Sequence record: NC_052662.1
Length of the DNA: 64,000 nucleotides
Source: Escherichia phage Mt1B1_P17
Reading direction: 5' to 3' (one strand)
Made by a program: the position numbers and the translations under genes. Below are positions 33,020 through 54,184 of the stretch, piece after piece. Numbering within the stretch: the first letter of the stretch is position 1; each line of letters opens with the position of its first letter. A model generated the notes under the pieces. It searched no databases. It was not told the origin of the DNA and saw nothing but the letters and a program-made list of their open reading frames with translations.

Positions 33020-33034
33020 GTGAGGAGATAAGTA

Positions 33035-33640: not shown

Positions 33641-33641
33641 T

Positions 33642-35118: not shown

Positions 35119-35132
35119 TAAGGAGCTAAAAA

Positions 35133-35606: not shown

Positions 35607-35618
35607 GAGGAGATTAGT

Positions 35619-35840: not shown

Positions 35841-35843
35841 GTG

Positions 35844-35902
35844 TTGACATAGTTCTTAAAAAGAGTAAGATATATCACATGAAGCGGGGAATAGTTCCCC
35901 GC
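35844..35902 (+). promoter_or_regulatory. early-type promoter cassette on plus strand: TTGACA-N16-TAAGAT plus 5' stem-loop GCGGGGAATAGTTCCCCGC
   Basis: -35 at 35844..35849, -10 at 35866..35871, hairpin 35884..35902; same architecture as the minus-strand early cassettes. Confidence 0.6.
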
Positions 35903-35919
35903 AAAGAGAGGAGAAAAGA

Positions 35920-36894: not shown

Positions 36895-36900
36895 TAAATG

Positions 36901-36925
36901 AGCCTCCTTCGGGAGGCTATTTTAT
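36901..36925 (+). terminator. intrinsic terminator AGCCTCC-TTCG-GGAGGCT plus T-rich tail
   Basis: Perfect 7-bp stem followed by ATTTTAT. Confidence 0.55.
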
Positions 36926-36936
36926 AGGAGAGACTT

Positions 36937-37287
36937 ATGAGTAATTTTGATGAAATTCAAGAACTTGTTTGGGATTTATCTGGTGATGTGGATTACATTT
37001 CAGATTATCTTTCAAAAGTTTACCCTGGGGTAAGCGTTATGATTGTGACCAAAGATCCAATTAATTTGCCTCCTAATGTTGTAGCTTGTTGTGGAAGTGG
37101 TTCAGGAGAAGTAGAGCCTGTATCTCGTTGGGAATTAACTAAAGCTGTTTCAAAACGAAGCGGTGAAGTTTTGAATATTGATATTGAGCAAATATGGACT
37201 TCTCCAGCAGCCAAATGGAATGATCCAAATGGTTGGGATTTGTTCTTCTGGGATAATGAGACTGATGATGAGGTGTTTTTAAAATGA
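36937..37287 (+). CDS. hypothetical acidic protein (116 aa)
   Basis: ORF; RBS AGGAGAG. Confidence 0.5.
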   Translation: MSNFDEIQELVWDLSGDVDYISDYLSKVYPGVSVMIVTKDPINLPPNVVACCGSGSGEVEPVSRWELTKAVSKRSGEVLNIDIEQIWTSPAAKWNDPNGWDLFFWDNETDDEVFLK

Positions 37288-37529
37288 AATACTTGTTGGT
37301 TGTGTTTGAAAATATCTGTTTTGCAATAGGGTTGTTTGTTGTAATTTTTGTATTGACAAGCGTAATCAACGGCAGTAAAGTGAGTTTATACCGAGATGGA
37401 GAGCAACTTTATTGCTTCTCTGGAGATTTCAAACACAGATGTATTAATAGCCAAAACGAGGAAAGCAAATATGAAAAAACTAGCCCTGATTTTAATTGGT
37501 TGTATCTTTTTAACAGCTTGCGAGGATGA
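37284..37529 (+). CDS. possible small membrane protein (81 aa; N-terminal hydrophobic helix)
   Basis: ATGA overlap with upstream stop; 3' end overlaps the lipoprotein gene by 59 nt, so uncertain. Confidence 0.3.
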   Translation: MKYLLVVFENICFAIGLFVVIFVLTSVINGSKVSLYRDGEQLYCFSGDFKHRCINSQNEESKYEKTSPDFNWLYLFNSLRG

Positions 37530-37908
37530 AACAAATCCTGCACAATACCAACAACCTCCTCAACAATACGCTCAACAAGGATCTGACGGAGATACAACTA
37601 TTATCAACAATGGTGGCGGTTCTAGTAGTAGCGGTGTTGGTGAGTTTGCTACAGGTATGTTGTTAGGGCATATGATGAGTGGCGGTAGTAATCGTAGCAG
37701 TGGGGATTATAACGATAACAGAACGATTATTAATAAGCATTATAATACACCTAAACCGAAAACTAATTTTTATGGTAAGCCTAAACAAGAGATAAAAACT
37801 TATGAAAAGCCGAGACAAACTTTTAAAACAAATAGTAGCTATACAACTCGTAAATCTTACAATAGCCCTTTAAGTAAAAAGAGTTCATCTCGTAGCAAGC
37901 GACGTTAA
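37471..37908 (+). CDS. lipoprotein (lipobox LTAC), Q/G/S/N-rich low-complexity body
   Basis: MKKLALILIGCIFLTAC signal and lipobox; RBS AGGAAAG; track ORF starts further upstream at 37396. Confidence 0.5.
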   Translation: MKKLALILIGCIFLTACEDETNPAQYQQPPQQYAQQGSDGDTTIINNGGGSSSSGVGEFATGMLLGHMMSGGSNRSSGDYNDNRTIINKHYNTPKPKTNFYGKPKQEIKTYEKPRQTFKTNSSYTTRKSYNSPLSKKSSSRSKRR

Positions 37909-37922
37909 TAAGGAGAAAAACA

Positions 37923-38516
37923 ATGACAATTTCTATTCGTACTTCCATTACAGGTGTTAAAAGTTTGCCTAATGCTTTGCAAATCACACGTGCTTTGAGG
38001 GATACGTTCTCTGCTGTGGATGAGCATAAGATGCTCGATAATCTCTCAAATTGGCCCTATTTCCATTATTTTAAAAATGAAGACGACGAGTTTATAGACG
38101 CTGTTTCTTACGGTTATGATTTCGGTAAGGAGGTTTCCCCTGAAGAATTTGTAGCTACGGTGTTCCCAAACGGTTTGCCTACTCGCAGTAAACGTAAAAA
38201 AGGACCAAAAAACAAGAAACGTGCTACTAATAAAGCTACCATTTTCTTTACTGATGGCACACAATATACGATTAAAGATTTTGAAGAGGTATCTTATACA
38301 GCAGGTGGGAGTCTTTCTTTCTACACCATCAAAAAACAAAACTATACGTTCAGCCATGTTTCTAACATGATTGAAATGTTAGTAGAAGATATTGAAAGCG
38401 TGGCTGTGTTAGGTATGCATAAAAGCTTTTTAATTACAAATATTTCAGATTTCAGTGCAAGTTTATCTGGCCCTGATTTTGAAGCCACGACCACGCATTT
38501 CGCTTTTAAGGTGTAA
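37923..38516 (+). CDS. hypothetical protein (197 aa)
   Basis: ORF; RBS AAGGAGAAAAA. Confidence 0.5.
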   Translation: MTISIRTSITGVKSLPNALQITRALRDTFSAVDEHKMLDNLSNWPYFHYFKNEDDEFIDAVSYGYDFGKEVSPEEFVATVFPNGLPTRSKRKKGPKNKKRATNKATIFFTDGTQYTIKDFEEVSYTAGGSLSFYTIKKQNYTFSHVSNMIEMLVEDIESVAVLGMHKSFLITNISDFSASLSGPDFEATTTHFAFKV

Positions 38517-38519
38517 GTT

Positions 38520-39110
38520 ATGCATACCGAGAGAGACTTGCAACTCTTGTGGTGGGAAGTGATGCAGGAAATAAAAGAAGATTTTCCTGTTTACTACAAC
38601 ATGTTACGTGAAGCAGGATATAAAGCTTGTGTTAGAAACAAAGTGAATAACTCTTTCGGTTGGTGCAACTACCGAGATAAAATTGTTGTTGTAAATTGGC
38701 ACTTGCATAAGAACTCCACAAGAGATATGATCGTGGATACAATGAAGCACGAAATTGCTCATGCTATTGATGGTTGTATGGGTAAGTTTAGTAGACACGG
38801 TGCTCATTGGCAAAAACTGGCAGCAGAGTTAGGGGCTAATCCTAAAGCCACTTCCAAAGAGCCGTTGAACCACGAATATAAATATGTTCTTGTTCTGGTA
38901 GATAGGTTTGCGACAAGATGTGTTAGAGGTTATAATCGTAAACCTAATCGCATGTACCCAGGTAAGCAACCTAATATGTGGTTGAAATCAGATAAAGAAG
39001 GGACCGAAGGAAAATTATGGTTGTATAAATGGGACGATTGGGTTAAAGTAGCTAAAGAGTACGGTGTTTCACCATATATAAGAGATGCAGAAGAGGAGAA
39101 TGAAGAATGA
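38520..39110 (+). CDS. putative zinc metallopeptidase (HExxH; SprT-like)
   Basis: MKHEIAHAIDG motif with downstream His. Confidence 0.45.
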   Translation: MHTERDLQLLWWEVMQEIKEDFPVYYNMLREAGYKACVRNKVNNSFGWCNYRDKIVVVNWHLHKNSTRDMIVDTMKHEIAHAIDGCMGKFSRHGAHWQKLAAELGANPKATSKEPLNHEYKYVLVLVDRFATRCVRGYNRKPNRMYPGKQPNMWLKSDKEGTEGKLWLYKWDDWVKVAKEYGVSPYIRDAEEENEE

Positions 39111-40219
39111 CAAGTCCATTTTTAAAAGCAGCTACTGGCGGTCAGAAGAAGCCTGAAATGAGCGTATTTGCTGCAACAACAGATGCAAGTAAATCTGTAT
39201 TCGCTCCAAGCGTGTTAGATGCCAGTCCTGTTTATGCACCAGCGGCACCGCAAGAAGTTCCAGTTTTGCCTTCTATGACCCGACAAGAGATCGAAGAGAT
39301 TGGGGCAGAGGCAGGAACAACCTTGCGTTCCTTGAATGCCGAGGTGTTAAAACATCAACGTAGTAATCAAGGCGATCAGATGAGTGAACGACTCACAGCT
39401 TTGATTAAACAGGCAAAACAACTTGATCCAAACTCTATTAAACAAAGCAAAGGTATTACTAAACTCATTAAAAAAGTTATGGGTATGAAAGAAGACCTGT
39501 TCGGGGAGTTTGATAATGTTAATAACCGTATTGAAGAGTTGGTAAAGAACCTTCAAATGGATATTCGCAAAGAAGAAGATTCCTTGGTATATCTTGAAAA
39601 GCTACATCAAGCTATTGGACAATATGCTGCAAGTTTGAACCGAGATATGCAGCTTCTAACAGCAACCTATGAAAAAGAAGAACAAGCTTTGGCTGCTCTT
39701 CCAGAAGATGCAGTAGAACAGCGACAAGTGATCCGAGATACTTTGGATCTCTTGGAGATTCGTATTGCAGATTTAAAAGCATTGCGCCTACTGTGTGTCC
39801 AAATGGGACCGCGTGTACAAGGTATGCAAAAAGTTTCTGCAAGCTTAATGCGATCTGCGCGTAACATAGTAAATAATGTTATTCCTGCTTACTCTGCTAA
39901 CTTCTCAATGTATATCGAGAGCTTACGTCAAATGAAAGCAGCAGAGACGCAGAATAACGTTCTTGATGAATTTAACCTGGCAATTAAACTGGGTAGCGAT
40001 CTTGCCACACAGAATCAGATCGAAGCAGCAGCACTGGCTAACCGTCAAGTGTTGGATATTGAAACTCTGCGTCACGATCAGGAAAACTTGGTTAAGATGT
40101 TGGAAGAAACTAACCGCATCAATACGGAAGCCCGTGCTGCTCGTGTTGATTATATTAATGAAGTTCAATCTCTGGAAGACGGGATGGTAGCTGCTGTGAA
40201 ACGAGGGCTTGGTAAATGA
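39107..40219 (+). CDS. long alpha-helical/coiled-coil protein; possibly TelA-like (unverified)
   Basis: 370 aa, helical heptad-like composition; TelA suggested only by size and Ter-gene context. Confidence 0.4.
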   Translation: MTSPFLKAATGGQKKPEMSVFAATTDASKSVFAPSVLDASPVYAPAAPQEVPVLPSMTRQEIEEIGAEAGTTLRSLNAEVLKHQRSNQGDQMSERLTALIKQAKQLDPNSIKQSKGITKLIKKVMGMKEDLFGEFDNVNNRIEELVKNLQMDIRKEEDSLVYLEKLHQAIGQYAASLNRDMQLLTATYEKEEQALAALPEDAVEQRQVIRDTLDLLEIRIADLKALRLLCVQMGPRVQGMQKVSASLMRSARNIVNNVIPAYSANFSMYIESLRQMKAAETQNNVLDEFNLAIKLGSDLATQNQIEAAALANRQVLDIETLRHDQENLVKMLEETNRINTEARAARVDYINEVQSLEDGMVAAVKRGLGK

Positions 40220-40416
40220 GAATCCGTATCTATATAATTGATGAGGACATTGGTGTCCGTTATGATGACGAAAAACGATTCGCGCCGATGGGAGGTATAT
40301 ATCCCCCAAGTGTTCTAGCAGTTTGTCGTGATTGTTATATTTATGAAGGTTGTCGTAACTTCCGTAAATTCGAACTCCTTGCAGATATTGACTTCAATGA
40401 GGAGGAGGAGGAGTAA
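40216..40416 (+). CDS. hypothetical small protein (66 aa)
   Basis: ATGA overlap with upstream gene. Confidence 0.4.
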   Translation: MRIRIYIIDEDIGVRYDDEKRFAPMGGIYPPSVLAVCRDCYIYEGCRNFRKFELLADIDFNEEEEE

Positions 40417-40590
40417 TGAAAATACTACGAGTGAATATTGAAACTGCTTGGTGTGGATGCAATGAGGTTGTGGATATCGAAATTGAAGATGATATGTCTC
40501 AAGAGGATATAGAAGATCTTGCACACGAAACCTTTCAGGATTATTGTAATTACGGGTTCCATATTTTAGAGGAGGAAGAAGATGTATAAT
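40417..40590 (+). CDS. small acidic protein, 57 aa (below track cut-off)
   Basis: ATG directly after upstream stop; RBS GGAGGAGG. Confidence 0.3.
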
Positions 40591-40980
40591 CCAACAGGTA
40601 TTCTTTTAAAACTTACAGTAACAGACCCTACTCTTTTCACTAAGTTAGCAAGTGGTGAAGTTTATGAAGTAATGAAAGATGGTGACGGTTGGTGTTATCT
40701 TTGTGGCTACTTCCTCTGTGATGCAGAAGAGTTAGAGTCCATTGTAACTAAAGGTTTTTATGAAGAACCAGGGTTCCGTGTGGAAACTACGCAGAAACCT
40801 GATACCATTACGCTGACTCGACAGGAACTGATCACAATCATTGAAGATGCTTTTATTGATGGCTGGAATACACAAGATAATGACTGGGGTGGACCCGAAG
40901 CTTTTCTGGAACATCATAAAGCTTATGGAGAATTTTGTGAAACCACTGTAGCTCTTGATAATCTGAAGGAGGGTTTGTAA
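40582..40980 (+). CDS. hypothetical protein (132 aa)
   Basis: ORF; RBS GAGGAGGAAG. Confidence 0.45.
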   Translation: MYNPTGILLKLTVTDPTLFTKLASGEVYEVMKDGDGWCYLCGYFLCDAEELESIVTKGFYEEPGFRVETTQKPDTITLTRQELITIIEDAFIDGWNTQDNDWGGPEAFLEHHKAYGEFCETTVALDNLKEGL

Positions 40981-41543
40981 TGGGTTGTTTTAGCTTTTTG
41001 TGCAAAGAATCGGGCAAAGCTGCCCTTTCTACTTCTTTCGACGGATCACCTTGCTACCTCTTTCTTTTGAAGGACGGTGTTGTTATTGAAGAGATGTATG
41101 GCAACTATGATAGTTATGGTTGTGTTTTCTCTGGAAAGGAGGATGAAAATGGTGTTCGTGAACGATTTGAATGGGCTATGGATTGGAGTAAGGTTTGTGA
41201 TTTGATGCATTCCTCAAATCCAAGGGACGGTATCGCTATGGTGCTGGAAGAGTACTTTACAGGTGAAATCCCTACAGAACAATCTGACGGAGATCCTAAC
41301 CAAGGTTGGGGTGATGGTGAAGAAGATCCAGATTGTTTTTTCAGCACAGAAAAGAATAAGTTTAAACGTGTTGACAACCCTTATCACAAAGTGCATAATA
41401 CTCTCATTGAAACAAAAGATGACAAGATGGAAATTGAAGAAGATGATCCTCTTGTAACACTTCCTATAAGTGAGTTACAAAAGATCACTAAGGAAGCTTA
41501 CGATTTGGGCTTCAAAATTGGTAGAGGAGGTATGCGTGTTTAG
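40980..41543 (+). CDS. hypothetical acidic protein (187 aa)
   Basis: ORF; RBS GGAGGG. Confidence 0.45.
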   Translation: MGCFSFLCKESGKAALSTSFDGSPCYLFLLKDGVVIEEMYGNYDSYGCVFSGKEDENGVRERFEWAMDWSKVCDLMHSSNPRDGIAMVLEEYFTGEIPTEQSDGDPNQGWGDGEEDPDCFFSTEKNKFKRVDNPYHKVHNTLIETKDDKMEIEEDDPLVTLPISELQKITKEAYDLGFKIGRGGMRV

Positions 41544-41814
41544 ATTCAATATTCAAGAAGAAAAAAGTCAGGATTTACCTATTGCTTTCGAAGATCTTGA
41601 CGTAGGGGCCACATTCATGTATTATGATGCCTATGAAGACGCAGGGTTGGATACCTACCGTAACTTGGTGTTCATTAAAAATTCCACAAACAGTGCGATT
41701 TGTATTAATGGATCACTAGCACAACGAGGCTATACTCATTGCATCCCACCAGATACAAATATGGTGGAAGTAGATTTAGAAGTTACCAATATTACACTTA
41801 AGAAGGAGAAATAA
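41536..41814 (+). CDS. small partner protein, paralogue 1 (GTG start)
   Basis: VFRFNIQEE...EDLDVGATFMYYDAYEDAGLD aligns with CDS 42836..43105; RBS GAGGAGG. Confidence 0.4.
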   Translation: MFRFNIQEEKSQDLPIAFEDLDVGATFMYYDAYEDAGLDTYRNLVFIKNSTNSAICINGSLAQRGYTHCIPPDTNMVEVDLEVTNITLKKEK

Positions 41815-41815
41815 T

Positions 41816-42610
41816 ATGTCCGAGAAAATCAGCCTGAAAAAACGTCAAGAAAACCTTGCTTTCTCTCTGAAAAAGAATAAGAACCTGAATGAAGGTAAGA
41901 TTGTTCTTCGTGTAGCATGTGCTCTAGATATTTCTGGTAGTATGCATGGTCTATATTCTAGTGGGGTAGTGAGTGATTTTGTAGGTAAACTGCTTCCTTT
42001 TGGTATGCTGTTCGACGATAATCAACAAATTGATATGTGGGCCTTCAATACGAGTTCCCAAGAGCTTACTCCAGCAACAGCAGACGTTTACGATGACTAT
42101 GTTGGTAAATGTATGCGTAATGTTCGTATCGGAGGTGGAACAAATTACGCCCCTGTAATGGCAGATATCTACGATGAGTATTTTGGCACTGTTACCAAAT
42201 ATATTACCACTAAACAAGTGGTACAAGAGGAGGCTCCAAAGAAAGGCTTCTTTAATCGTCTGCTTGGTAAAACTGAAACAGTGTCTGTAGAGCGTGAAAA
42301 AGTTGTAGCTGTATCTGAACCAGGTGCTGACGTTACCCCTGGTGTTGTATTCTTCCAGACGGATGGTGAGAATGGTGATCCTAGTGCTGTTCGTCGTCTT
42401 ATTGAAGAGAATAAGAATAAACCTATTTATTGGTTCATGGTTGGCGTTGGTAATGAGAAGTTTGGGTTCCTGAAAGAACTGGCAAATGCTTATGATAATG
42501 TTGGTTTTATTGGCATTAAAGATTTAGACTTGACAGATTCAGAGCTTTATGACAAACTCTTATCTGAAGAGTTCGGAGAGTGGGTTGTTAAAGTAGGTGC
42601 TAAAAAATGA
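41816..42610 (+). CDS. vWA-domain protein (TerY-like) with TerD-like N-terminal leader
   Basis: MIDAS motif ALDISGSM; N-terminal SEKISLKK repeats the TerD N-terminus of CDS 43121..43723. Confidence 0.55.
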   Translation: MSEKISLKKRQENLAFSLKKNKNLNEGKIVLRVACALDISGSMHGLYSSGVVSDFVGKLLPFGMLFDDNQQIDMWAFNTSSQELTPATADVYDDYVGKCMRNVRIGGGTNYAPVMADIYDEYFGTVTKYITTKQVVQEEAPKKGFFNRLLGKTETVSVEREKVVAVSEPGADVTPGVVFFQTDGENGDPSAVRRLIEENKNKPIYWFMVGVGNEKFGFLKELANAYDNVGFIGIKDLDLTDSELYDKLLSEEFGEWVVKVGAKK

Positions 42611-42855
42611 TCGACGAGCTTGCCTCTCAAGTCATAGAAAATTATTGGCGCGAGAGAGAAGCTTTCATTATGCGCAGTCTCAAAGAGTATTTCATTGGGA
42701 CTGTGCGAATGGAAGATATTGTAAGTAGAGTGGAGATTCATGTATGGCCCGATTATGAAGAATGGGTTGACAAAGAAAATGAAAATGCTATAATTCTTCG
42801 TATATACAAACCGGAGATAACATTAGGAGGAAGAAGTGTTAAACTTCGAAATTGA
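42607..42855 (+). CDS. hypothetical protein (82 aa)
   Basis: ORF with overlapping start/stop. Confidence 0.4.
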   Translation: MIDELASQVIENYWREREAFIMRSLKEYFIGTVRMEDIVSRVEIHVWPDYEEWVDKENENAIILRIYKPEITLGGRSVKLRN

Positions 42856-43105
42856 TGAGCAAAAAGTAAATAAACGATGCCTTACCATTAAAGATTTGGA
42901 TGTAGGAGATACTTTCGTCTATGAAAATGCATTTGACGAAAATGGTTTAGACCTTAGTGAAATCATTGTTTATTTAAAAGTAGATGATGGGGAAAATGAT
43001 TATTCTGCTGTAGAACTAAACCATCATGCACAATTAGTATCAATCCAAAACACATCTAAGCTTTTGGAAGTAGAATTGACTGTAACTGGTATTACACTTA
43101 AATAA
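42836..43105 (+). CDS. small partner protein, paralogue 2 (GTG start)
   Basis: VLNFEIDEQ...KDLDVGDTFVYENAFDENGLD; paralogue of 41536..41814. Confidence 0.4.
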   Translation: MLNFEIDEQKVNKRCLTIKDLDVGDTFVYENAFDENGLDLSEIIVYLKVDDGENDYSAVELNHHAQLVSIQNTSKLLEVELTVTGITLK

Positions 43106-43120
43106 TAGAGGAGACAAAAG

Positions 43121-43723
43121 ATGACTGATAAAATTTCCCTGAAAAAAGGCTCTAGCGAAAAAATTTCCCTGAAGAAAGTTGCTCCGGCTCTGAAAGAACT
43201 GCGCCTGGAATTCTCTTGGAAATCTGATTCTAAACTGGATCTGGATGTAAGTGCACTGGTTTGTCGTCACAATGCCGCTGGTAATCCTGAAATGCTGTCT
43301 GCACGTCATCTGGTTTGCTATGCTAACAAGTTTGATCCTGAACGTTCTACCTTCGCTGGTGACGATGTTCGTGATGGAACTGGCAGCATGGAGCAGATTG
43401 ATATTACTCTGGCTAAAATCTCTCCTGATGCACAAGAGATTGCCTTTGTTCTGACCATTGATGATGATACAGGTCTGAAACGTTTTGGTCATGCTTCTGA
43501 AGGTATGCTTAAAATCTTCGACTCCGAGCGCAATGTGGAAATTCTGGATTTTGACTTCCTGGCTCCTGAAGTAGCTGGCAACACAATCTGCCACGTGGCT
43601 TCCTTGGTTCGTGAAGATGGGGAATGGAAGCTGAAAGCATATGGTGTAGGTAAAGCTGGTCTGGATATTTGTGATGTGGTGATGGCCTTCGGTGGTAAAA
43701 AAGAATGGTATGAATGTCCATAA
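43121..43723 (+). CDS. terD: TerD-family protein
   Basis: N-terminal KISLKKGSSEKISLKK repeat, LDLDVSAL, acidic D-rich loops and GEWKLKAYG, matching the TerD pattern from memory. Confidence 0.75.
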   Translation: MTDKISLKKGSSEKISLKKVAPALKELRLEFSWKSDSKLDLDVSALVCRHNAAGNPEMLSARHLVCYANKFDPERSTFAGDDVRDGTGSMEQIDITLAKISPDAQEIAFVLTIDDDTGLKRFGHASEGMLKIFDSERNVEILDFDFLAPEVAGNTICHVASLVREDGEWKLKAYGVGKAGLDICDVVMAFGGKKEWYECP

Positions 43724-43822: not shown

Positions 43823-44344
43823 TTGCTGATAAAAAACTTTGTAACAGTTGCGTTACTATCCTTAACTGCTTTTACATTTACACCTGTTGTGGCGAAAGCC
43901 GAAGCTGCAAACGTAAAAACCGCTAAAGTAGTTCACAAATGTACAAAGCAATATAATGATAAAATTCTATTAGCTTGTGCAATTTACGCAGAAGGTCGTG
44001 GTCTGGGTAAAAAAGGAATGAATGCCGTTGGGAATGTGGTAATCAACAGAAGAAATGATACCTACTTCCCTAACACAGTCAGAGGAGTCTTGTTCCAGAA
44101 AGGACAATTCTCATATGCGAAAACTTTTAACGTAACAGAGAAAGATAAGTGGCAGGAAGCAAAAGCAATAGCGGAGCGTTTACTTTATTTAGAGAAACAT
44201 TTTCCTGAATTGCGGTCTGTTTTAGATGTTACTAAAGGTGCTCTATACTTCAAGAAACGGAATATAAGGACACACTGGGAACGTGATATGCGTCTTGTTT
44301 ATCGAGATAAAGTGCATGGTTTCTATCTACCAAAGGGGAGTTAA
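43823..44344 (+). CDS. secreted cell-wall hydrolase, SleB-like domain
   Basis: Signal peptide; motifs AIYAEGRG, GMNAVGNVVINR, FPNTVRGVLFQKGQFS; TTG start with RBS AAGGAGG. Confidence 0.55.
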   Translation: MLIKNFVTVALLSLTAFTFTPVVAKAEAANVKTAKVVHKCTKQYNDKILLACAIYAEGRGLGKKGMNAVGNVVINRRNDTYFPNTVRGVLFQKGQFSYAKTFNVTEKDKWQEAKAIAERLLYLEKHFPELRSVLDVTKGALYFKKRNIRTHWERDMRLVYRDKVHGFYLPKGS

Positions 44345-45045: not shown

Positions 45046-45609
45046 ATGATTTATTATATTACTCCCTATCTGACAGGAAATATCGGCAAGGCTATCAATA
45101 AAGCCATTGCCGTTCTTCCAGATGATAGTTGGGTGTGTTTAAGAGATACCGATACAATGTTCCTCCTACCTGATCAACCATCTATGCTTGAAGAGCTTGT
45201 TATGTCAAACCCGCCTTTTGATGTAATAGGTGCAACTTGTAACAGGTTAGGCAGTGGTTATCAGCTTTTCTCTAACCAAATTAACGATGATCCAGATATT
45301 CTAAACCATATAGAATATGCTAAGATTGCAAGAGAATATCATAAAGTGAGTGTTGAAGAAGTTCCTTTCGGAACACCTCTGGCAGGTTTCTTCTTGCTTT
45401 TTAGAAAATCATTGTGGAATGAAATTCCTTTCGAAGAAAAATCTATCCAATTCGACTTAATTTTCTCTCGCACTTTACATGAAAAAGGAAAGAGGTTAGG
45501 ATTGATGCGGGGAATGTATCTGTTTCACATTTACAGATTAGGTCAAATAAATCCTCAACGGTCTATACATCATTTATTACACTGTCATGATCACAGTAAA
45601 ACTATTTAG
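45046..45609 (+). CDS. possible GT-A-like glycosyltransferase
   Basis: LPDDSWVCLRDTDTMF resembles a DxD nucleotide-sugar motif; tentative. Confidence 0.35.
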   Translation: MIYYITPYLTGNIGKAINKAIAVLPDDSWVCLRDTDTMFLLPDQPSMLEELVMSNPPFDVIGATCNRLGSGYQLFSNQINDDPDILNHIEYAKIAREYHKVSVEEVPFGTPLAGFFLLFRKSLWNEIPFEEKSIQFDLIFSRTLHEKGKRLGLMRGMYLFHIYRLGQINPQRSIHHLLHCHDHSKTI

Positions 45610-45617
45610 GAGAGAAA

Positions 45618-46301
45618 ATGGAAAATATTAAAATTGGAGTGGGTGTTATCACTGTAGGTGTCCGTCCACTTAAAGACTACCTTGTAACAGATCCACGTGC
45701 AGATTTTCGAGTATTCAACGATCCAGATCGTAAAGGTGTAGCTTATGCCAGGAATGAACTTATGCACCAGTTTTATGAAGAAGGTTATGATTATTGGTTT
45801 ATTTTTGACGACGATTGCTACCCAGTCATGGAGGGATGGGAAACATACTTTGTAGATCAAGCTGTCTCTGGAGGATGGGATTTCTTTGGTATGCCGGAGT
45901 ATTTCAAAGATAAAGTTGTTGGAAGCAAAGGAGAAGTTATTCTCTGGGAACTTGCAATGTGTCAATTTGCAATGTATTCTCGTGCCGTTGTTGAGAAGAT
46001 GGGTTATTTCCGTCCTTACACTCACGGCTATGGTTTTGAAGATGCTGAATGGGGACACCGTTTGCAAGCTGCTGGTTTGAATCATGGTATTCAGGCAACA
46101 CCTTGTCCACTTCGTATCATGGCTTATATCCACCCAGACGATGTTTTTGGAAACAACCCTATGCCTTTTGCTAATCTGACAAAAGAAGAGAAAGAAGCTG
46201 CTATCGGGATTAACTGGGAAGAATATAAAGCATCTTTAGAGGATATTAAAAATGGGAAAATCCGAATTTCCTATGAGGAGGCACTGGCACATGTCAAATA
46301 A
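45618..46301 (+). CDS. GT-A-fold glycosyltransferase-like protein
   Basis: DYWFIFDDDCYP (DxD) and GYGFEDAEWGHRL motifs. Confidence 0.45.
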   Translation: MENIKIGVGVITVGVRPLKDYLVTDPRADFRVFNDPDRKGVAYARNELMHQFYEEGYDYWFIFDDDCYPVMEGWETYFVDQAVSGGWDFFGMPEYFKDKVVGSKGEVILWELAMCQFAMYSRAVVEKMGYFRPYTHGYGFEDAEWGHRLQAAGLNHGIQATPCPLRIMAYIHPDDVFGNNPMPFANLTKEEKEAAIGINWEEYKASLEDIKNGKIRISYEEALAHVK

Positions 46302-47238
46302 AAAATGGTCTAAACTAAAAATTGATGCAAAACCTCATAGCGGTTGTGACTATCATCGTATTGTTATGCCATTTAACAACAATAATTTTCAACCTAAGAA
46401 AGATATTGTTGTGTTTAACCGTATCCACTCTAAAGGTGCAGAATACGTTTTATCTTTGAAACGTCAAGGTGTTAAGGTTGTTGTAGATTTAGATGATTTT
46501 TACCAACTTAATCCAGAGCATTATTTAGCAAGTCTATACGAGTCAAACACTCATGCTATTGTAGCTATGGTTAAGCTTGCTGATGTGGTTATTGTGACTA
46601 CAGAATATTTGGCATATAAGATCCGTCACTTAAATAGAAATGTCGTTGTGATCCGAAATGCACTTCCTTTTGATAGCGGACAATTCACTTTGTCAAATGA
46701 TCGTTCATCCGGTACCCCTGTTGTATGGGCTGGCGGTGCTAGTCACGAACCAGATTTACGACTAGTCTCTAATACTTTCGATGATGAACTTCTTACTATT
46801 GCGGGATATGAAGCATCACAAAGCATCACGGGACAAGAGTGGATTAAGATTCGCAGAAATTTACCAAATGCCAAATATAAAGCTGCTGTAAAAGATTTAG
46901 ATAATTACATGAGTGTTTACGAAAGTCATGCTATTGCTATAGCTCCTTTGGTAGACAATGATTTTAATAATTGTAAAAGTAATCTCAAAATCCTGGAAGC
47001 TGGAGCAAAAGGTATTCCGATTGTTTGTTCTAAGGTATTACCTTATTTTAACCCTGTAGATGCTCGCGCTGTTGCTTACGCAGAGAATAAAGCAGAATGG
47101 CATTACGAAATTGTTAAGCTTCTTCGCAATCCAAACTATCGGGAAGATCGTGGCTTGTTCTTGGCTGAACATGTTCGAACACATTATAATCTGGCAGATG
47201 CAAACGAGTTGCGACGCCAGGTTATTGAAAGTTTGTAG
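46291..47238 (+). CDS. GT-B-fold glycosyltransferase-like protein, paralogue 1
   Basis: C-terminal NCKSNLKILEAGAKGIPIVCS resembles the GT-B donor-binding helix; paralogue of 47246..48190. Confidence 0.5.
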   Translation: MSNKKWSKLKIDAKPHSGCDYHRIVMPFNNNNFQPKKDIVVFNRIHSKGAEYVLSLKRQGVKVVVDLDDFYQLNPEHYLASLYESNTHAIVAMVKLADVVIVTTEYLAYKIRHLNRNVVVIRNALPFDSGQFTLSNDRSSGTPVVWAGGASHEPDLRLVSNTFDDELLTIAGYEASQSITGQEWIKIRRNLPNAKYKAAVKDLDNYMSVYESHAIAIAPLVDNDFNNCKSNLKILEAGAKGIPIVCSKVLPYFNPVDARAVAYAENKAEWHYEIVKLLRNPNYREDRGLFLAEHVRTHYNLADANELRRQVIESL

Positions 47239-47245
47239 GTGAAGT

Positions 47246-48190
47246 ATGGGACAAATAATTCTTGACAATCGTAACGGAATCAATTATAGTGTCTGCGATT
47301 TCCATAGGGTAGTGCTGCCTTACTCAAGGCAGTTCTCTTCACAACCTAAATACAACGTTTTCGTTTTTAACGGAGTGCCAACAAAAGGTAAAGAGGGCTT
47401 TTTAGCCCTTAAAAACCTAGGCTTTAAAATGGTTATGGATTTGGATGACTCTTTAGTTATTCCAAAAGGACACATGTTAGAAGGTATTTTTGAATCAGGT
47501 ATTCGTGAACATTTAAAATGGTTTTTAGAGCACAGTGATCTTGTTACAACTACGACACCTGCCTTGCAAGTTGAACTTTCACAATACAATGATAATGTGC
47601 ACATAATCCCTAATGGACTTCCTTATGATGAAGGTCAATTTGTGTTGACCCGTGATCGCTACTCCAAAACTCCATTAGTCTGGGCTGGAAGTGAAACACA
47701 TAAACAAGATTTGGCTATCTTGCCCGATTTTGGTAAAGATCTTACAATATGTGGTTTTCGTAGGGATTCTGAAGTTTTAAGTAGTCGTGAATGGTCTGTA
47801 ATCAGAGAAAATGTAGCACCAACTTGTGTTTATGAAGGTGTAAGACCATATGCCAACTACATGGAATCTTACGATGGTCATCAAATCAGTCTTGCGCCAT
47901 TGATTGATAACGTGTTTAATAATGCAAAAAGCAATCTTAAAATTCTTGAGGCAGGTGCTAAGGGTTTACCTTTGATCTGTTCTCCTCGTGAGAATTATCA
48001 TACACAAGAGTTTAAAGATTTGTTATTCTTTGCTGAAACACCTTCCGAGTGGAAAGATATTACGGAATACTTATTAAGTGCTCCCGATGTTTGCATGGAG
48101 AAAGGATTAGCATTAGCTAAGTATGTCAGGACTCATTATCACATTGATGTGTTGAATGAGCGTCGTAGACTTTTATTTGAGGAGCTATAA
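47246..48190 (+). CDS. GT-B-fold glycosyltransferase-like protein, paralogue 2
   Basis: NAKSNLKILEAGAKGLPLICS; collinear similarity with 46291..47238. Confidence 0.5.
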   Translation: MGQIILDNRNGINYSVCDFHRVVLPYSRQFSSQPKYNVFVFNGVPTKGKEGFLALKNLGFKMVMDLDDSLVIPKGHMLEGIFESGIREHLKWFLEHSDLVTTTTPALQVELSQYNDNVHIIPNGLPYDEGQFVLTRDRYSKTPLVWAGSETHKQDLAILPDFGKDLTICGFRRDSEVLSSREWSVIRENVAPTCVYEGVRPYANYMESYDGHQISLAPLIDNVFNNAKSNLKILEAGAKGLPLICSPRENYHTQEFKDLLFFAETPSEWKDITEYLLSAPDVCMEKGLALAKYVRTHYHIDVLNERRRLLFEEL

Positions 48191-48468
48191 TGATTAACAC
48201 TTTTGATTTTGAATACACCACTCGTAACGGGAAAGCCTTAGTTGTGGAGGTGGATTACTATTATGAAGAGCCTAACCCGCTTTCTCGTGAAAGTGATTGG
48301 GATTACCACGGAGGGCTTTTAATTGACGGTATTCGTTTTTATGAAGGCTCTACAGAAGTTTTTGAAAAAGATTTAAATGTAACTGTAGCAGAAATTGCTT
48401 TCCAATTTAGAAAGCATATGGAAGAACTAGAAGCAGAATATATGATGGAGACTAACGAACCATTTTAA
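48190..48468 (+). CDS. hypothetical acidic protein (92 aa)
   Basis: ORF; overlapping start/stop. Confidence 0.45.
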   Translation: MINTFDFEYTTRNGKALVVEVDYYYEEPNPLSRESDWDYHGGLLIDGIRFYEGSTEVFEKDLNVTVAEIAFQFRKHMEELEAEYMMETNEPF

Positions 48469-48480
48469 CAGGAGAACAAA

Positions 48481-50259
48481 GTGTCGCACATTATAACTAA
48501 ATATGGATTTGATGTTGATCTTAGCAAGGAAGGGCATACAGGTTGTCCGCGCTGCATGAAAAATGGCAAGGATCGCTCTCGTAATAACCTGATGGTTTAT
48601 GGATTAGATTCTAATGGAGAGCATAAAGGTGCTAAGTGCTTTGCGTGTGAATACACTATTCCTAGCGTAGAATGGTTACGAGAAAATGGTGAAGTTTTAG
48701 AAGAAGAGGAGGAGATTGTGGGTTCGGAATTTAATAAACAGATTCATCGTAAAATTGTTCAAGAAACATCAACCAACCCACGTGGTTATCGAGGCATTAA
48801 AGAAAAAGTTTCATCTTTCTATGGTGTTCGTTATGAATACCGTCAGGAAGGGGATCAGATGGTAGTAGAAAGTTGTTTATATCCGACTACTATCGGTAAA
48901 GAATTGGTTGGTTTTAAGCGTCGTATTCATCCTAAAGATTTCAGTAAACCTATTGGTCAAGTAGGTAAAGATGTAGATCTTTTTGGACAAATTCGTTTTG
49001 CAGACCGTTCTCATACTGTGGTAATTACAGGTGGTGAACACGATGCTCTGGCAGCTTATCAAATGCTATCTGAAAACTTGGACAACAAGTATGAACTTCC
49101 AGCAGTAGTTAGTGGCACAACTGGTGAAACCAGTATGTATAAACAAGTTCAGGCACAATATCCTTTCTTTGAAAAATTTAAGAAGATTATTGTTTGCATG
49201 GATAATGATAAAGCAGGTAATGAGGCATTTGAAAATATTGTTAAGGTGCTGCCTCGTAACAAAGTCTACCGTATGCAGATGGATCTTAAGGATGCCAATC
49301 AGTATCTGGAAGAAGGTCGTGCAAAAGATTTCGTAAAAGCTTTTTGGAGTGCTCGTCTATACACCCCAGCAGGTGTTTATGCTTCTAATGTCTTGTATGA
49401 AGCTGCATTAGAATGCTTGGAATCCAAGATGATTACCTTGCCTCCTTTTATGCGTGTAGCTGCAAACATGCTGGGTGGTGGTTTAGTAGAGGAAGAGATT
49501 ACAGTCATCCTGGCAAAGACCAGTATCGGTAAAACTTTGATGGTGAACGAGATCACCAAACATATTATTGTTGCGCACCCAGAACATACCCTAGGTATCC
49601 TGTCCTTGGAAGCAACTTATAAGAAATATTCTCGTAACCTGTTGTCCTCGTTCCTGCATATTCCTCTACACAGGAAAACACCGGAAGAGAAATTTCAAAT
49701 CTTGGAAGAGAATAAAGAAAAAATCCTAGATTTTTACGAAAGAGAAGATGGATCACCACGTTTTTATGTATGTGATGATCGTGGAGCAGATGTGGAGTCT
49801 ATCAAAGAAAAAGTTTTGGAGATGATCATCTATTTTGGAGTAACAATTCTTGTTATCGACCCTTATTCTGATTTGCTTTCTGGTATGGATGTTCAAGCCC
49901 AAGAAGAGTTAGCAACATGGTTGAAGCGCATTATGAAAGAGTATGCTATAACTATTATCGTCATCTCACACGTTAAGAAATCGGCTAATGGTGGCAATGA
50001 ACACTTAACAGAGGACGATGCAATGGGTAGTAGTTTCTTGGCTAAAGGTGCTGGTATTACCTTGGCTTTGGAACGAGATAAAGCCGCTGAAGACCCTGTA
50101 GAACGCAATACGACTCATTGCTTTATCCTAAAAAACCGTGAGTTCTCGGAAACTGGTCCGGCAGGGCAGTTTTACTATGACATTAGAACTGCAACTCTGC
50201 ATGACAAAGAGCAGTATTTCAACAATCCTGCTAATTTGCCTACGGATAGCAACTATTAA
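48481..50259 (+). CDS. bifunctional DNA primase-helicase (T7 gp4-like)
   Basis: N-terminal zinc ribbon CPRC...CFAC, TOPRIM-like acidic motifs (GGEHD, CMDNDKAG), P-loop AKTSIGKT; GTG start. Confidence 0.8.
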   Translation: MSHIITKYGFDVDLSKEGHTGCPRCMKNGKDRSRNNLMVYGLDSNGEHKGAKCFACEYTIPSVEWLRENGEVLEEEEEIVGSEFNKQIHRKIVQETSTNPRGYRGIKEKVSSFYGVRYEYRQEGDQMVVESCLYPTTIGKELVGFKRRIHPKDFSKPIGQVGKDVDLFGQIRFADRSHTVVITGGEHDALAAYQMLSENLDNKYELPAVVSGTTGETSMYKQVQAQYPFFEKFKKIIVCMDNDKAGNEAFENIVKVLPRNKVYRMQMDLKDANQYLEEGRAKDFVKAFWSARLYTPAGVYASNVLYEAALECLESKMITLPPFMRVAANMLGGGLVEEEITVILAKTSIGKTLMVNEITKHIIVAHPEHTLGILSLEATYKKYSRNLLSSFLHIPLHRKTPEEKFQILEENKEKILDFYEREDGSPRFYVCDDRGADVESIKEKVLEMIIYFGVTILVIDPYSDLLSGMDVQAQEELATWLKRIMKEYAITIIVISHVKKSANGGNEHLTEDDAMGSSFLAKGAGITLALERDKAAEDPVERNTTHCFILKNREFSETGPAGQFYYDIRTATLHDKEQYFNNPANLPTDSNY

Positions 50260-50792: not shown

Positions 50793-51587
50793 TTGAGCAA
50801 GTTGAACACACTTGATCAATATTACACTAACCCCGCTTATGCGGGGTTCTTATGTGATAAGATCAAAGAAATTTTTGGAGAGGAAGCTAACTACGTAGAA
50901 CCATCTGCGGGAGAAGGAGCTTTCTCTTCTTGTTTTAAAAACATAACTTCTTTTGATATTGACCCTAAGTTTGAAGATTGTATTGAGGCAGATTTTTTAG
51001 CTCAATCTGTTGAGTCTGTTGGTAGTGTAACTGCTTTTGTCGGTAATCCTCCATTTGGAAAAAATGCTAGTCTTGCCATTAAATTCTTTAACCATTGTGC
51101 TGAAATGCTGGATAACGAAGGTGGTATTTGTTTTATCTTGCCTCGCACATTTCAAAAAATCTTTTTTGCACACAAGCTAAATCCCCATATGCATCTTCTT
51201 TACGAAGAAGAATGTCCAAAAGGATCTTTTATTCTTCATGGAGAACCTTGGGATGTTCCTTGTGTATTCCAGGTATGGATTAAACGCAACGAGAAGCGTT
51301 CTCCCGTTGTTTTAGGAGAGAATCGACTATTCGTATTAGGTAACAGTAAAGACTACGATATAGCCGTTAGGAGAGCGGGAGCAAGTGCAGGTAAAGTGTT
51401 ATCAGAAGAAGATTCTTTATCTGAAGCATCTACCTATTTTTTAAAAGCCTTGACTTCTGATCTTAAAACGCGTATCATTGAGGCTTACCCGTTACTTAAA
51501 GCTGAAGCTAGTAAAACTGCGGGAGTAAGAAGTTTAAGTTTAAAAGAACTTCAGTGGGTTCTGGAGAACATTAGAAAGGAGGAATAG
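50793..51587 (+). CDS. DNA methyltransferase (N6-adenine/N4-cytosine type)
   Basis: SAM-binding motif EPSAGEGAF and catalytic motif GNPPFG; TTG start with RBS AAGGAGGA. Confidence 0.6.
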   Translation: MSKLNTLDQYYTNPAYAGFLCDKIKEIFGEEANYVEPSAGEGAFSSCFKNITSFDIDPKFEDCIEADFLAQSVESVGSVTAFVGNPPFGKNASLAIKFFNHCAEMLDNEGGICFILPRTFQKIFFAHKLNPHMHLLYEEECPKGSFILHGEPWDVPCVFQVWIKRNEKRSPVVLGENRLFVLGNSKDYDIAVRRAGASAGKVLSEEDSLSEASTYFLKALTSDLKTRIIEAYPLLKAEASKTAGVRSLSLKELQWVLENIRKEE

Positions 51588-54184
51588 TGAGTAAGTTTAC
51601 ATGGGATATTGAAGCAAACGGATTGTTGAATAATGACACTATTGATTATTTAGCTAGTCCTTATCGTCTCAAAGACACATTTCAAATGCACTGTATTGTC
51701 TTAGAGAACCATGAAACAGGAGAAATAGTAGCTTTCCACGATGGCCCTAAATACATCTTTGATGGGCGTCCTTATGAAGAGTCAGATGGTAAATACACAT
51801 ATGTTCTTAAAGAGTATGTGGCGCAAGATTACACACATTTTCAACTAAAAGATTTCCCAGATTTTATTAATCATGAAGGTTATTTTAAAGACAAGCCTGA
51901 ATATCTGGTTGAAATGGCTGTGGCTCACAACGGTATCAACTACGACTGGTTGGCTACAAAACTGTTTTATGGATTAGATTACAGTGTTAAATATAATACG
52001 TGGGGCAAAAATAAGGTAAAACTTATTGACTCCTTGATTTTGAGTAAAGTGTTAAACCCAGATCGAAAGATTGAGGGCAAATCAGGACATAGCTTGGCAG
52101 CACTTTCTCGAAAAGCAGGTGGTGATGTAAAAATAGATTTCCGTAAAGAGATTCCAGAAGAAGATCGATTTAAGACTTTTGCTGCGGATATGCTTTATTA
52201 CTGTATCTATGACAACAAAGCCAATACGAGCGTATATAATTACCTTATGGAAGAATGGGGTGATTATGATAAATGGGAAGGTCCATTTGAACTTGAACAA
52301 CGTGTAGCAGACATTATTACACGCCAGGAACACCGTGGGTTTGCTTTTAACATGAAACAAGCAGAAGAGAACCTTGCTTTTTTGGATGCAGAAATGGAGC
52401 GTCTTCGTTTACTCGTTGAGCCTATTTTGCCACCTAAACCAGCAACAAAAGGTTATCTTAAGGCTTTTATTCCACCTAAGTTGCAAATTAAAAAGAACTT
52501 AGAGCCAACTAACCATATGATCAATTTTGCTAAGAAACATGATGGTCATTTGGAAGAGAGGGATGGCGATTGGTGGTTAGTTATGTTGGGGAAAGAGTGG
52601 AAACTGCCAGTTGCAGCAGATGAGCCTCTATGTGATCCTAACATTCCTGCAACATTGAACGATACAACCCATATTAAAAACTGGCTTGTAGGATTAGGTT
52701 GGGTACCGTCTGAATATAAAGATAAAGACTTGACTCTTAAATCTGGCACCAAGATTAAAAAGAGCGAGGAAGAACTTCAGAAAGGTATTCGAGCTTACGT
52801 TGAGCAAACCCTATCTTCTAATTTTTGTCAGGATCGTTGTGATCATCTGGAGTGCACACCGGAAACCCTGGAAAGGAAGATTCAAGAGCGTATAGCAAAA
52901 GGTAAAGGTCGCGGTCTTAAAGTATTGACTAACCCGTGTTTTACCAAAGGTCAGGAAAAAGAAATTTGTCCTAACCTGCAAGCTTTGGGTGAGAAGTTTC
53001 CTTATGCTACACAGATTGTAGAATACTTAACGTATAAGCATCGTAGGAACTCTATTTTAGGTGGCGGTGCTGATTGGGAAGAAGATGAAGAAGATCAAGA
53101 ATACGATAAAGGTTTCTTAGCCGCAGTAAGGGCGGATGGGCGTATTCCTACCCCAGCCGCTACATGTGATGCTGCAACCTCTCGTATGAAGCATAGATCT
53201 GTAGCTAATATTCCTCGTGTCACATCTTTGTTTGGATGGGAGATGCGTAACTTGTTTGGTGTAGAGGTTCCTAAATACTTCCAGATCGGCTACGATTTCG
53301 ACTCTTTGGAAGCAAAAATTGAATCACACTACTGTTGGCGGTACGAGCCGGAGCCACACGAATATTGTAACGCTCTGTTGTTAGAGAAACCTAATGATGT
53401 TCACACAATGATGGCAAAACGTATCACTGAAACTATTGGACGTAAATTTGAACGTAGTCCTGCTAAATCTGTTAAGTATGGTATTACCTATGGTGCACAA
53501 GCCGACAAGGTTGCTAAAACAATTGGTAGCGATAAGTTTACAGGTCAATTGGTGTTTGATGCTTTCTGGGAAGCTGCATTCCCATTGGCGCGTCTTAAAG
53601 AACGTTTAAACGATTTCTGGGTTAAGACTGGTAAACAATATGTTTTGGGTATTGACGGTCGTAAGGTTCCTACTCGTTCTGCTCACGCGATTCTTAACTC
53701 TCTATTCCAAAGCGGCGGGGTTATCTGTGCTAAACGTGCAATGGTTATTTATGACGACATGATCGAAGAAGAAGGGCTAAGTGTTGACTTCTTTAAAGAT
53801 GACTGGAAGAATAAAGACTTCGTGCAACAAATGATCGCATATCACGATGAAGCCCAGCTTGAAGTTTCTCGTAACCTTGTAGAATTTAAATGGTTTTCAC
53901 CTGAATCATTAGGTTGGAAGAAAGTAGACGATCCTGAAGAACAAAAGAAAATTGATAAAGAATGCCTTGCTAAAGTTGAAGAATGGAAGCATAATAAGGA
54001 AAAAGAGACGGGACAAATTTGGGCTAACATTCATGAATCTCCCAAAGGTGGATGGTTTACAGCCTATAGTCGGGCAGGTGAACTCGCTGCTTTAGCTGTT
54101 ACTAAGGCTGGAGAATTTTACAATCTTAATGTTCAGCTTACTGCCGGATATGATGTGGGTAACTCCTGGGCATCCTGTCATTGA
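51587..54184 (+). CDS. family A DNA polymerase, T7 gp5-like, with 3'-5' exonuclease domain
   Basis: Exo I motif WDIEANGLL, DGRKVPTRSAHAILNSLFQSGG and C-terminal ...WASCH recalling T7 DNA polymerase; GTG start. Confidence 0.85.
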   Translation: MSKFTWDIEANGLLNNDTIDYLASPYRLKDTFQMHCIVLENHETGEIVAFHDGPKYIFDGRPYEESDGKYTYVLKEYVAQDYTHFQLKDFPDFINHEGYFKDKPEYLVEMAVAHNGINYDWLATKLFYGLDYSVKYNTWGKNKVKLIDSLILSKVLNPDRKIEGKSGHSLAALSRKAGGDVKIDFRKEIPEEDRFKTFAADMLYYCIYDNKANTSVYNYLMEEWGDYDKWEGPFELEQRVADIITRQEHRGFAFNMKQAEENLAFLDAEMERLRLLVEPILPPKPATKGYLKAFIPPKLQIKKNLEPTNHMINFAKKHDGHLEERDGDWWLVMLGKEWKLPVAADEPLCDPNIPATLNDTTHIKNWLVGLGWVPSEYKDKDLTLKSGTKIKKSEEELQKGIRAYVEQTLSSNFCQDRCDHLECTPETLERKIQERIAKGKGRGLKVLTNPCFTKGQEKEICPNLQALGEKFPYATQIVEYLTYKHRRNSILGGGADWEEDEEDQEYDKGFLAAVRADGRIPTPAATCDAATSRMKHRSVANIPRVTSLFGWEMRNLFGVEVPKYFQIGYDFDSLEAKIESHYCWRYEPEPHEYCNALLLEKPNDVHTMMAKRITETIGRKFERSPAKSVKYGITYGAQADKVAKTIGSDKFTGQLVFDAFWEAAFPLARLKERLNDFWVKTGKQYVLGIDGRKVPTRSAHAILNSLFQSGGVICAKRAMVIYDDMIEEEGLSVDFFKDDWKNKDFVQQMIAYHDEAQLEVSRNLVEFKWFSPESLGWKKVDDPEEQKKIDKECLAKVEEWKHNKEKETGQIWANIHESPKGGWFTAYSRAGELAALAVTKAGEFYNLNVQLTAGYDVGNSWASCH

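Follow-up and report, generated by a model that had tools for sequence, protein, structure and literature searches.

The four consecutive genes at positions 45046–48190 of a 64,000-nucleotide stretch of the genome of Escherichia phage Mt1B1_P17 (NC_052662.1; this whole stretch is referred to as the window) all encode glycosyltransferases (GTs), of which two are unrelated GT-A enzymes and two are paralogous GT-B enzymes. The second and third genes form a conserved mobile core that is also carried by unrelated temperate and uncultivated phages. The source phage belongs to the genus Phapecoctavirus (phAPEC8-like myophages, Stephanstirmvirinae), a group for which sugar-coated DNA has been proposed; the available evidence argues against that idea, which is poorly supported. 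Based on the analysis presented here, we tentatively prefer a reading in which the enzymes would build a rhamnose-containing glycan on one or more structural proteins of the virion, with the glycans of the host envelope as a close rival. The open reading frames (ORFs) of the cluster are as follows (aa, amino acids):

45046–45609, plus strand: ORF1, 187 aa; minimal GT-A fold glycosyltransferase
45618–46301, plus strand: ORF2, 227 aa; GT2-like GT-A glycosyltransferase, part of the portable core module
46291–47238, plus strand: ORF3, 315 aa; GT-B (GT4-like) glycosyltransferase, part of the portable core module
47246–48190, plus strand: ORF4, 314 aa; second GT-B (GT4-like) glycosyltransferase

Folds, motifs and families of the four enzymes

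An earlier note on this DNA had predicted four consecutive glycosyltransferase genes, and the prediction is confirmed by matches to PHROG glycosyltransferase families with E values of 1e-111 for ORF1, 1e-78 for ORF2 (phrog_2456), 6e-149 for ORF3 (phrog_7162) and 5e-145 for ORF4. The two motifs by which ORF1 and ORF2 had been considered GT-A-like, RDTDTMF and FIFDDDCYP, are present from residue 33 of ORF1 and residue 61 of ORF2, respectively, and their DxD-type residues are conserved. In the ORF1 family alignment, D34-x-D36 is near-invariant (each aspartate at least 90% conserved) and H161, Y163 and R164 are invariant, while D64-D65-D66 and E141-D142 are invariant in the alignment of the ORF2 family. 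Both proteins display the single Rossmann-like α/β/α fold of GT-A enzymes together with the conserved acidic DxD-type motif for the metal and the nucleotide sugar; a comparison of ORF1 with ORF2 revealed no sequence relationship between them.

The placement of ORF1 and ORF2 in the GT-A superfamily, as GT2-like enzymes, rests on the fold and on transitive homology, not on their own Pfam scores. ORF1 has no GT match in Pfam, and all matches of ORF2 are sub-threshold, namely TAGT (TET-associated glycosyltransferase; 19.5 bits, cut-off 27.5), GT2 (13.3 bits, cut-off 23.3) and Glyco_transf_7C. A profile search with the ORF2 family collected 1513 relatives; among 72 remote ones, 38 match Pfam GT2 (best 2e-17), 35 match Glyco_transf_7C and 10 match TAGT weakly. 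Weak TAGT matches also occur in 16 of the 17 members of the ORF2 family itself. The assignment of ORF2 as a TAGT was considered and rejected, since the threshold of that family is never reached and the remote relatives are mostly GT2 or Glyco_transf_7C proteins; ORF2 is therefore GT2-like.

ORF3 and ORF4, which had been described as paralogous GT-B-like proteins with a shared motif, are indeed 41% identical to each other (E = 3e-77). The motif KSNLKILEAGAKG is common to both; NAKSN is found in ORF4 and NCKSN in ORF3. Each protein consists of a pair of Rossmann domains, of which the C-terminal one harbours the nucleotide-sugar site. In Pfam, ORF3 matches Glyco_trans_1_4 and Glyco_trans_1_2 below threshold (22.6 and 20.7 bits), ORF4 matches Glyco_trans_1_2 at 25.2 bits against a cut-off of 25, and many GT-B orthologues carry a precomputed PF13524 match. 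Searches of the four proteins by sequence against the chains of the PDB returned nothing useful, and a search of NCBIfam gave no match. No transmembrane segments were detected in the four GTs, for which the maximal Kyte-Doolittle 19-residue mean is 0.8–1.65. ORF1, ORF2 and ORF4 are acidic (isoelectric point 4.9–6.3), and ORF3 is mildly basic.

Orthologues and previous annotation

The cluster region is 100% identical to those of Escherichia phages vB_EcoM_ESCO37 and REC. Alignments covering 80% or more of it were obtained for 69 records, 63 of which, from Phapecoctavirus, show 95–100% nucleotide identity. Because the first 25 kb of the window show only about 96% identity to any deposited genome, the phage represents a new, mosaic isolate within a genus that is well sampled. 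Annotated orthologues are found in phAPEC8 (NC_020079), tuntematon (gp113–116; NC_052660), phi92 (gene 163) and Bas60 PaulScherrer (0048–0051). In these Stephanstirmvirinae, the same four genes lie in the same order upstream of the primase-helicase gene, and nothing substantive differs; the phi92-like phages (Justusliebigvirus, including the BASEL phage Bas60) possess the same cluster, with about 76% protein identity for ORF4.

RefSeq already labels all four genes as glycosyltransferases, and the GT-B pair is called a 'putative disaccharide synthase' in BASEL. Rhamnosylated DNA was proposed for this phage group, without data, by Olsen et al. 2020, and the proposal was repeated in a second paper; it was questioned on phenotypic grounds in the BASEL work. 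No functional study of these GT genes was found in the literature. Thus, the gene annotation and the idea of DNA rhamnosylation are already known. The present analysis adds the negative results on membership among the DNA-modifying GTs, the widespread portable GT-A/GT-B core associated with late genes, and the retention of RmlC and RmlD in two reduced genomes.

A portable two-gene core

The pair of ORF2 (GT-A) and ORF3 (GT-B) recurs in several late-gene settings. In a Serratia prophage, genes resembling ORF1, ORF2 and ORF3 (41, 36 and 50% identity) follow one another in this order between the holin, endolysin and spanin genes and an HNH-TerS-TerL set. In lambdoid metagenome contigs, the ORF2/ORF3-like pair is flanked by the Q-antiterminator region, next to HicAB, on one side and by the lysozyme gene on the other. 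In another contig, TerL and the portal gene enclose the pair, and in prophages of Pseudomonas and Chitinophagaceae the terminase follows directly downstream of it. In IMG/VR, a pattern scan picked out relatives of the GT-B protein on at least 555 contigs. The commonest neighbours were counted in 84 fetched loci, 83 of which contain the GT-B gene:

unknown 140-aa protein: 45 loci
GT2 enzyme: 42 loci
large terminase: 34 loci
hexapeptide acyltransferase: 28 loci
ParB_N protein: 25 loci

Nucleases of the HNH and VRR-NUC types are also common around the module in these loci, and further partners in related modules include a Methyltransf_23 protein and extra GT2 and GT4 genes. Additionally, a 433-aa fusion of a PLOD-type GT (procollagen lysyl hydroxylase family) with a Methyltransf_24/rhamnosyl-O-methyltransferase-like domain adjoins the GT-B homologue just upstream of the terminase in uncultivated phages and a Chitinophagaceae prophage (loci L036, L103 and L105).

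The GT-B copies of prophages are closer to ORF3 than to ORF4, being 40–50% identical to ORF3, and ORF2 plus ORF3 therefore represent the ancestral core. ORF4 is a lineage-specific duplicate of ORF3. ORF1 is an add-on to the core, and an ORF1-like domain is fused to another domain in a Cellulophaga phage. Four metagenomic GT-B homologues (P0062, P0063, P0064 and P0070) align with ORF3 in their N-terminal half and with ORF4 in their C-terminal half; such chimeras could have arisen by recombination between tandem paralogues or as an artefact of assembly.

The earlier note had correctly named the primase-helicase, a DNA methyltransferase(-like) protein and the DNA polymerase as the genes directly downstream, and had taken this adjacency as a clue to a DNA target. 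The clue loses support, since the adjacency is not conserved and the module is found elsewhere beside lysis, terminase and portal genes. Proximity to the replisome is a peculiarity of the Stephanstirmvirinae and not a property of the module.

The probable sugar donor

No rml genes are present in the window. In relatives, they are located approximately 70 kb from the GT cluster, next to nrdAB. The complete rmlB-A-C-D set is found in tuntematon, phAPEC8 and REC, and RmlA occurs in Phapecoctavirus and in phi92-like phages. Only rmlC and rmlD are present in ESCO37 (32824–34226) and in Klebsiella phage FKP3 (118185–119593), the latter of which also has a reduced GT cluster. Across the deposited sequences, rmlB-rmlA DNA was detected in 48 records, as compared with 63 Phapecoctavirus-level records containing the GT cluster.

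ESCO37 and FKP3, the two reduced genomes that were examined, retain RmlC/RmlD and not the full pathway. The loss of rmlB and rmlA from some Stephanstirmvirinae in which rmlC and rmlD are kept suggests that the phage-specific need lies in the last two steps toward dTDP-rhamnose. E. coli makes dTDP-4-keto-6-deoxyglucose, the substrate of RmlC, through RffH and RffG for the enterobacterial common antigen (ECA); with this intermediate supplied by the host, RmlC and RmlD alone would therefore suffice for dTDP-L-rhamnose. On the basis of gene content, dTDP-L-rhamnose is probably one donor of the system, supplied by phage RmlC and RmlD and sometimes by RmlA and RmlB as well.

DNA as a possible acceptor

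The earlier note had suggested that the cluster glycosylates DNA bases as a measure against restriction. In this reading, rhamnose or other sugars would be transferred to a modified base, either genome-wide or at sparse specific sites. Among the points in its favor are that T4 has b-gt and gene 42 among its replication genes, that ORF2 carries the R...DDD...ED pattern described for DNA GT-A enzymes, that nearly every member of its family retains the weak TAGT similarity noted above, and that the two papers cited earlier had proposed rhamnosylated DNA for this very group. It is further conceivable that the modification is sparse: site-specific glycosylation after replication gives no broad resistance to restriction, and the sensitivity of a phage to restriction-modification (RM) systems is thus compatible with it.

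However, no route to a hydroxyl-bearing base was identified. Neither in the window nor in the complete tuntematon genome did a tblastn search with T4 gp42 (dCMP hydroxymethylase) detect a ThyA-family gene, in line with the impression of the earlier note that no hydroxymethylase-like gene is visible. No ThyA homologue was found by phmmer in the 84 related loci, and no gp56-like dCTPase was found. Oxygenases and TET proteins are absent from the product names of tuntematon and from the approximately 20 commonest neighbour families, with hypothetical proteins only partly scanned. The 'Dcm'-annotated gene of relatives has no Pfam methyltransferase match, and a ThyX-like gene, which might be suspected of hydroxylating a base, belongs to a protein type carried by over 1000 phage genomes, some of them in lineages that the GT-B search did not return; it was rejected as specific evidence for this reason. 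Of the enzymes themselves, ORF2 has GT2 proteins as its remote relatives, ORF1, ORF2 and ORF4 are acidic, and BLASTP with T4 a-gt and b-gt gave no similarity (E > 0.3).

The behavior of the relatives points in the same direction. The phi92-like phages Bas60–62, which have the orthologous cluster, were described as 'exceptionally susceptible' to RM systems (Maffei et al., BASEL). In a 2026 study, the Stephanstirmvirinae Bas61 and Bas62 were restricted 100- to 100,000-fold by ARMADA II, a system that, according to its authors, most likely recognizes unmodified DNA and is inactive on the hypermodified Straboviridae. No nucleoside analysis of virion DNA from this phage group was found in the literature. 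Taken together, the lack of a ThyA-family enzyme, the GT2 rather than TAGT affiliation of ORF2 and the RM sensitivity of relatives make DNA hypermodification unlikely. A more specific version, in which the DNA of Stephanstirmvirinae would bear a sparse or site-specific rhamnose-containing modification on a base activated without a ThyA-type hydroxylase or a recognizable TET, is more doubtful still; if true, it would be a new kind of DNA glycosylation that confers no broad resistance to restriction and has hence escaped notice.

Several annotations in tuntematon deserve mention. The ThyX-like gene (115302–116300; L003:43703–44701) is annotated as an FAD-dependent thymidylate synthase of 332 aa, in which THR replaces RHR in the ThyX signature; the Pfam Thy1 match reaches only 33 bits, and an NT5C-like nucleotidase gene adjoins. 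The label of gp161 as 'DNA methyltransferase' (L003:22004–22483, minus strand) looks wrong, since the protein matches an XkdF-type phage protease (PF14550), and the label 'Dcm' of gp211 (L004:13892–14575) is unsupported, with no Pfam match.

Candidate acceptors: virion proteins, host envelope or small molecules

A virion protein or a host polysaccharide, the fallback of the earlier note, is at present the likelier kind of acceptor. The four soluble, nucleotide-sugar-dependent GTs probably act in sequence to build a short oligosaccharide, and its acceptor would be a macromolecule made late in infection and not DNA. A short tailored glycan on a macromolecule is suggested by the four soluble GTs, the supply of a deoxyhexose, and the O-methyl- and acyltransferases of sister modules. 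That the module repeatedly occurs next to lysis, packaging and head genes points to late action alongside virion assembly. Glycosylation of virion proteins with a rhamnose-containing glycan is the reading that we prefer, albeit tentatively. Several observations weigh against it. The literature yielded no report of virion protein glycosylation for phi92- or phAPEC8-like phages. In tuntematon, the proteins of the capsid, decoration, tube and sheath lack the Ser/Thr-rich or C-terminal extensions of the mycobacteriophage type, and the Ser plus Thr fraction in its head, tube and sheath proteins reaches at most 0.35 in any stretch of 20 residues; proteins can be glycosylated in the absence of such an extension. 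Location next to the terminase is typical of DNA-modifying enzymes as well, and ParB-like neighbours have been reported for DNA-glycosylation clusters. In the source phage the cluster sits in the replication block and not in the structural block, and rmlA/B are absent from about a third of Phapecoctavirus records.

Alternatively, the enzymes may remodel the host envelope by adding sugars, including rhamnose, at the inner membrane to a lipid-linked intermediate, the lipopolysaccharide (LPS) core, ECA, or a precursor of O-antigen or capsule. This would mask or deplete the glycan receptors of the phage, leading to superinfection exclusion, to fewer progeny lost on debris and, in prophages, to serotype conversion. 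The rml pathway is characteristic of the synthesis of surface polysaccharides, and RmlC and RmlD would drain the ECA precursor dTDP-4-keto-6-deoxyglucose. The structural neighbours of ORF4 include enzymes with lipid-linked or polymer acceptors (WlaC, PglA, PimA, TarM, WaaG and WbnH), and among those of ORF1 are polysaccharide synthases and RmlT, which rhamnosylates wall teichoic acid. In the lambdoid contigs the pair occupies an accessory-gene region beside the HicAB toxin-antitoxin genes, and TarP offers a precedent for a soluble phage GT-A enzyme that alters a cell-wall polymer. In BASEL, these phages were proposed to recognize ECA and to use the LPS core. On the other hand, transmembrane segments and strongly hydrophobic stretches are missing from all four proteins; nowhere in the contexts examined is the module accompanied by a flippase, a polymerase or a Gtr-type partner, and membrane-embedded GtrA, GtrB or Gtr(type) proteins are absent from the cluster and from the neighbouring genes of these contexts. 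Furthermore, most copies lie inside the late packaging and lysis region, which is not normally expressed by a lysogen, and a strictly lytic cycle would leave limited time for remodeling of the surface. Envelope remodeling is thus possible, if rather doubtful, and stands as a close rival of virion-protein glycosylation.

A small molecule or a host protein is a further candidate acceptor; examples would be the nucleoside-like product predicted for the adjacent Ter/phosphoribosyltransferase (PRTase)/HAD genes, or a host protein modified during takeover. Ter-type neighbourhoods are predicted to make a nucleoside-like metabolite, and a full set of this type directly precedes the GT cluster on the plus strand, and no terminator-like site intervenes. 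EarP, a GT-B enzyme that rhamnosylates protein arginine, is a precedent for the use of dTDP-rhamnose on proteins. Many of the structural neighbours of ORF4 act on small molecules, such as BshA, the sucrose-phosphate and trehalose synthases and a tetrahydrobiopterin GT, and a glycosyltransferase has been listed beside a ComF-like PRTase in a Pseudomonas defence island. However, the portable ORF2 and ORF3 module is found in many phages with no nearby Ter or PRTase genes, and four transferases with a sugar pathway would point to an oligosaccharide borne by a macromolecule over a single glycoside. Acceptors of this kind are accordingly considered improbable. The complete Ter-type set (33642–43723, plus strand) includes the following genes:

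33642–34298, plus strand: HAD-like protein, weak match
34291–35118, plus strand: ComF-like PRTase (PF15610, E 2e-41)
35133–35606, plus strand: Macro protein, weak match
35920–36894, plus strand: TerC
38520–39110, plus strand: SprT-like protein
39107–40219, plus strand: TelA
41816–42610, plus strand: vWA-TerF-like protein
43121–43723, plus strand: TerD

The question matters since widespread coliphages that are candidates for therapy invest in four GTs and in part or all of the rhamnose pathway, yet behave as if their DNA were unmodified. A virion-protein target, if true, would bear on the immune recognition and the stability of therapeutic phages, and it would be, to our knowledge, the first virion glycosylation described in phages of Gram-negative bacteria. 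A host-envelope target, if true, would constitute a receptor-masking mechanism in a lytic phage.

Layout and neighbourhood of the cluster

The four genes are tightly packed, with a gap of 8 nt between ORF1 and ORF2, an overlap of 11 nt between ORF2 and ORF3 (start 46291), and a gap of 7 nt between ORF3 and ORF4. The longest reading frame of ORF3 opens at 46252 (46252–47238, 328 aa); its true start is most likely 46291, because the RefSeq start is located there and the PHROG alignment begins there (residue 19 of the long ORF). A minus-strand ORF at 45606–46133 (175 aa) was dismissed as a shadow ORF. The genes that follow the cluster are:

48190–48468, plus strand: small acidic ORF, 92 aa, isoelectric point 4.2; phrog_4240 (function not known)
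48481–50259, downstream of the cluster: primase-helicase (Toprim and DnaB_C)
50793–51587, plus strand: N6-adenine methyltransferase-like protein, NPPF motif
51587–54184, downstream of the cluster: DNA polymerase

One ORF without assigned function lies between the genes of the primase-helicase and the N6-adenine methyltransferase-like protein. No terminator-like sites were found on the plus strand between the GT cluster and its neighbours, and the nearest good intergenic promoter-like sites are at approximately 43.77 kb and 50.29 kb. Because no terminator-like site intervenes, the GT genes are likely transcribed together with the flanking replication genes.

The start of the 92-aa ORF overlaps the stop of ORF4 in an ATGA at 48190. 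This ORF is kept downstream of the cluster only in loci of the Stephanstirmvirinae type and is absent from the other contexts of the module; its counterparts in relatives are annotated as hypothetical, and its membership in the module is uncertain. A comparison of this ORF with the 140-aa protein encoded after the GT-B gene in other phages showed the two to be unrelated.

As for the surrounding genes, the Pfam Eco57I match of the N6-adenine methyltransferase-like protein is weak (15.6 bits), and the phi92-like phage Bas60 has no gene at this position. A SleB-type cell wall hydrolase (43823–44344, plus strand; PF07486, E 2e-17), encoded between the Ter genes and the GT cluster, has an N-terminal hydrophobic segment resembling a signal peptide; relatives encode a separate lysozyme elsewhere. 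Further downstream, the ORF at 55862–56794 (plus strand), hypothetical in relatives, ends in an acidic ...DFDDDIPF tail after a Lys/Glu/Pro-rich linker, a type of tail that we take to be typical of single-stranded DNA-binding proteins.

Comparison with known glycosylation systems

Like the cluster described here, the systems of T4 (a-gt/b-gt; GT72/GT63), of RB69 and DLP3, and of the TAGT type are phage-encoded and employ multiple GT-B and/or GT-A enzymes. DNA glycosylation systems sometimes carry their own nucleotide-sugar pathway, and the GTs of T4 are near replication genes. The fold cannot decide the acceptor, because the proven DNA arabinosyltransferases of the RB69/DLP3 type share the top structural neighbours of ORF4. 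The differences lie in the accompanying genes and in the phenotype. The arabinosylation of 5-hydroxycytosine in RB69 and DLP3 involves a ThyA-type 5-hydroxycytosine synthase, a dCTPase, a sugar pathway, and two or three GTs, and the resulting DNA is highly resistant to cleavage, whereas the relatives of Mt1B1_P17 are sensitive to restriction. Unlike the T4, RB69 and TAGT systems, the present one has no ThyA-homologous hydroxylase or hydroxymethylase, no annotated TET and no similarity to a-gt or b-gt.

The cluster also differs from TarP of S. aureus prophages and from the GtrABC system of O-antigen glucosylation in that it lacks Gtr-type membrane proteins and transmembrane segments. Furthermore, in contrast to such prophage-borne modifiers of the cell surface, the source phage is strictly lytic, and most copies of the module are located in late operons.

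Glycosylation of virion proteins, the preferred reading, would resemble known viral cases. Mycobacteriophages glycosylate capsids and tails, and chloroviruses bear rhamnose-containing, O-methylated glycans on their capsids, assembled by viral GTs such as A064R; both likewise rely on virus-encoded sets of soluble GT-A and GT-B enzymes. The rhamnose and O-methyl groups of the chlorovirus glycans have their counterpart in the related modules described here, in which a rhamnosyl-O-methyltransferase-like domain, a PLOD-type protein GT and acetyltransferases are found beside structural genes.

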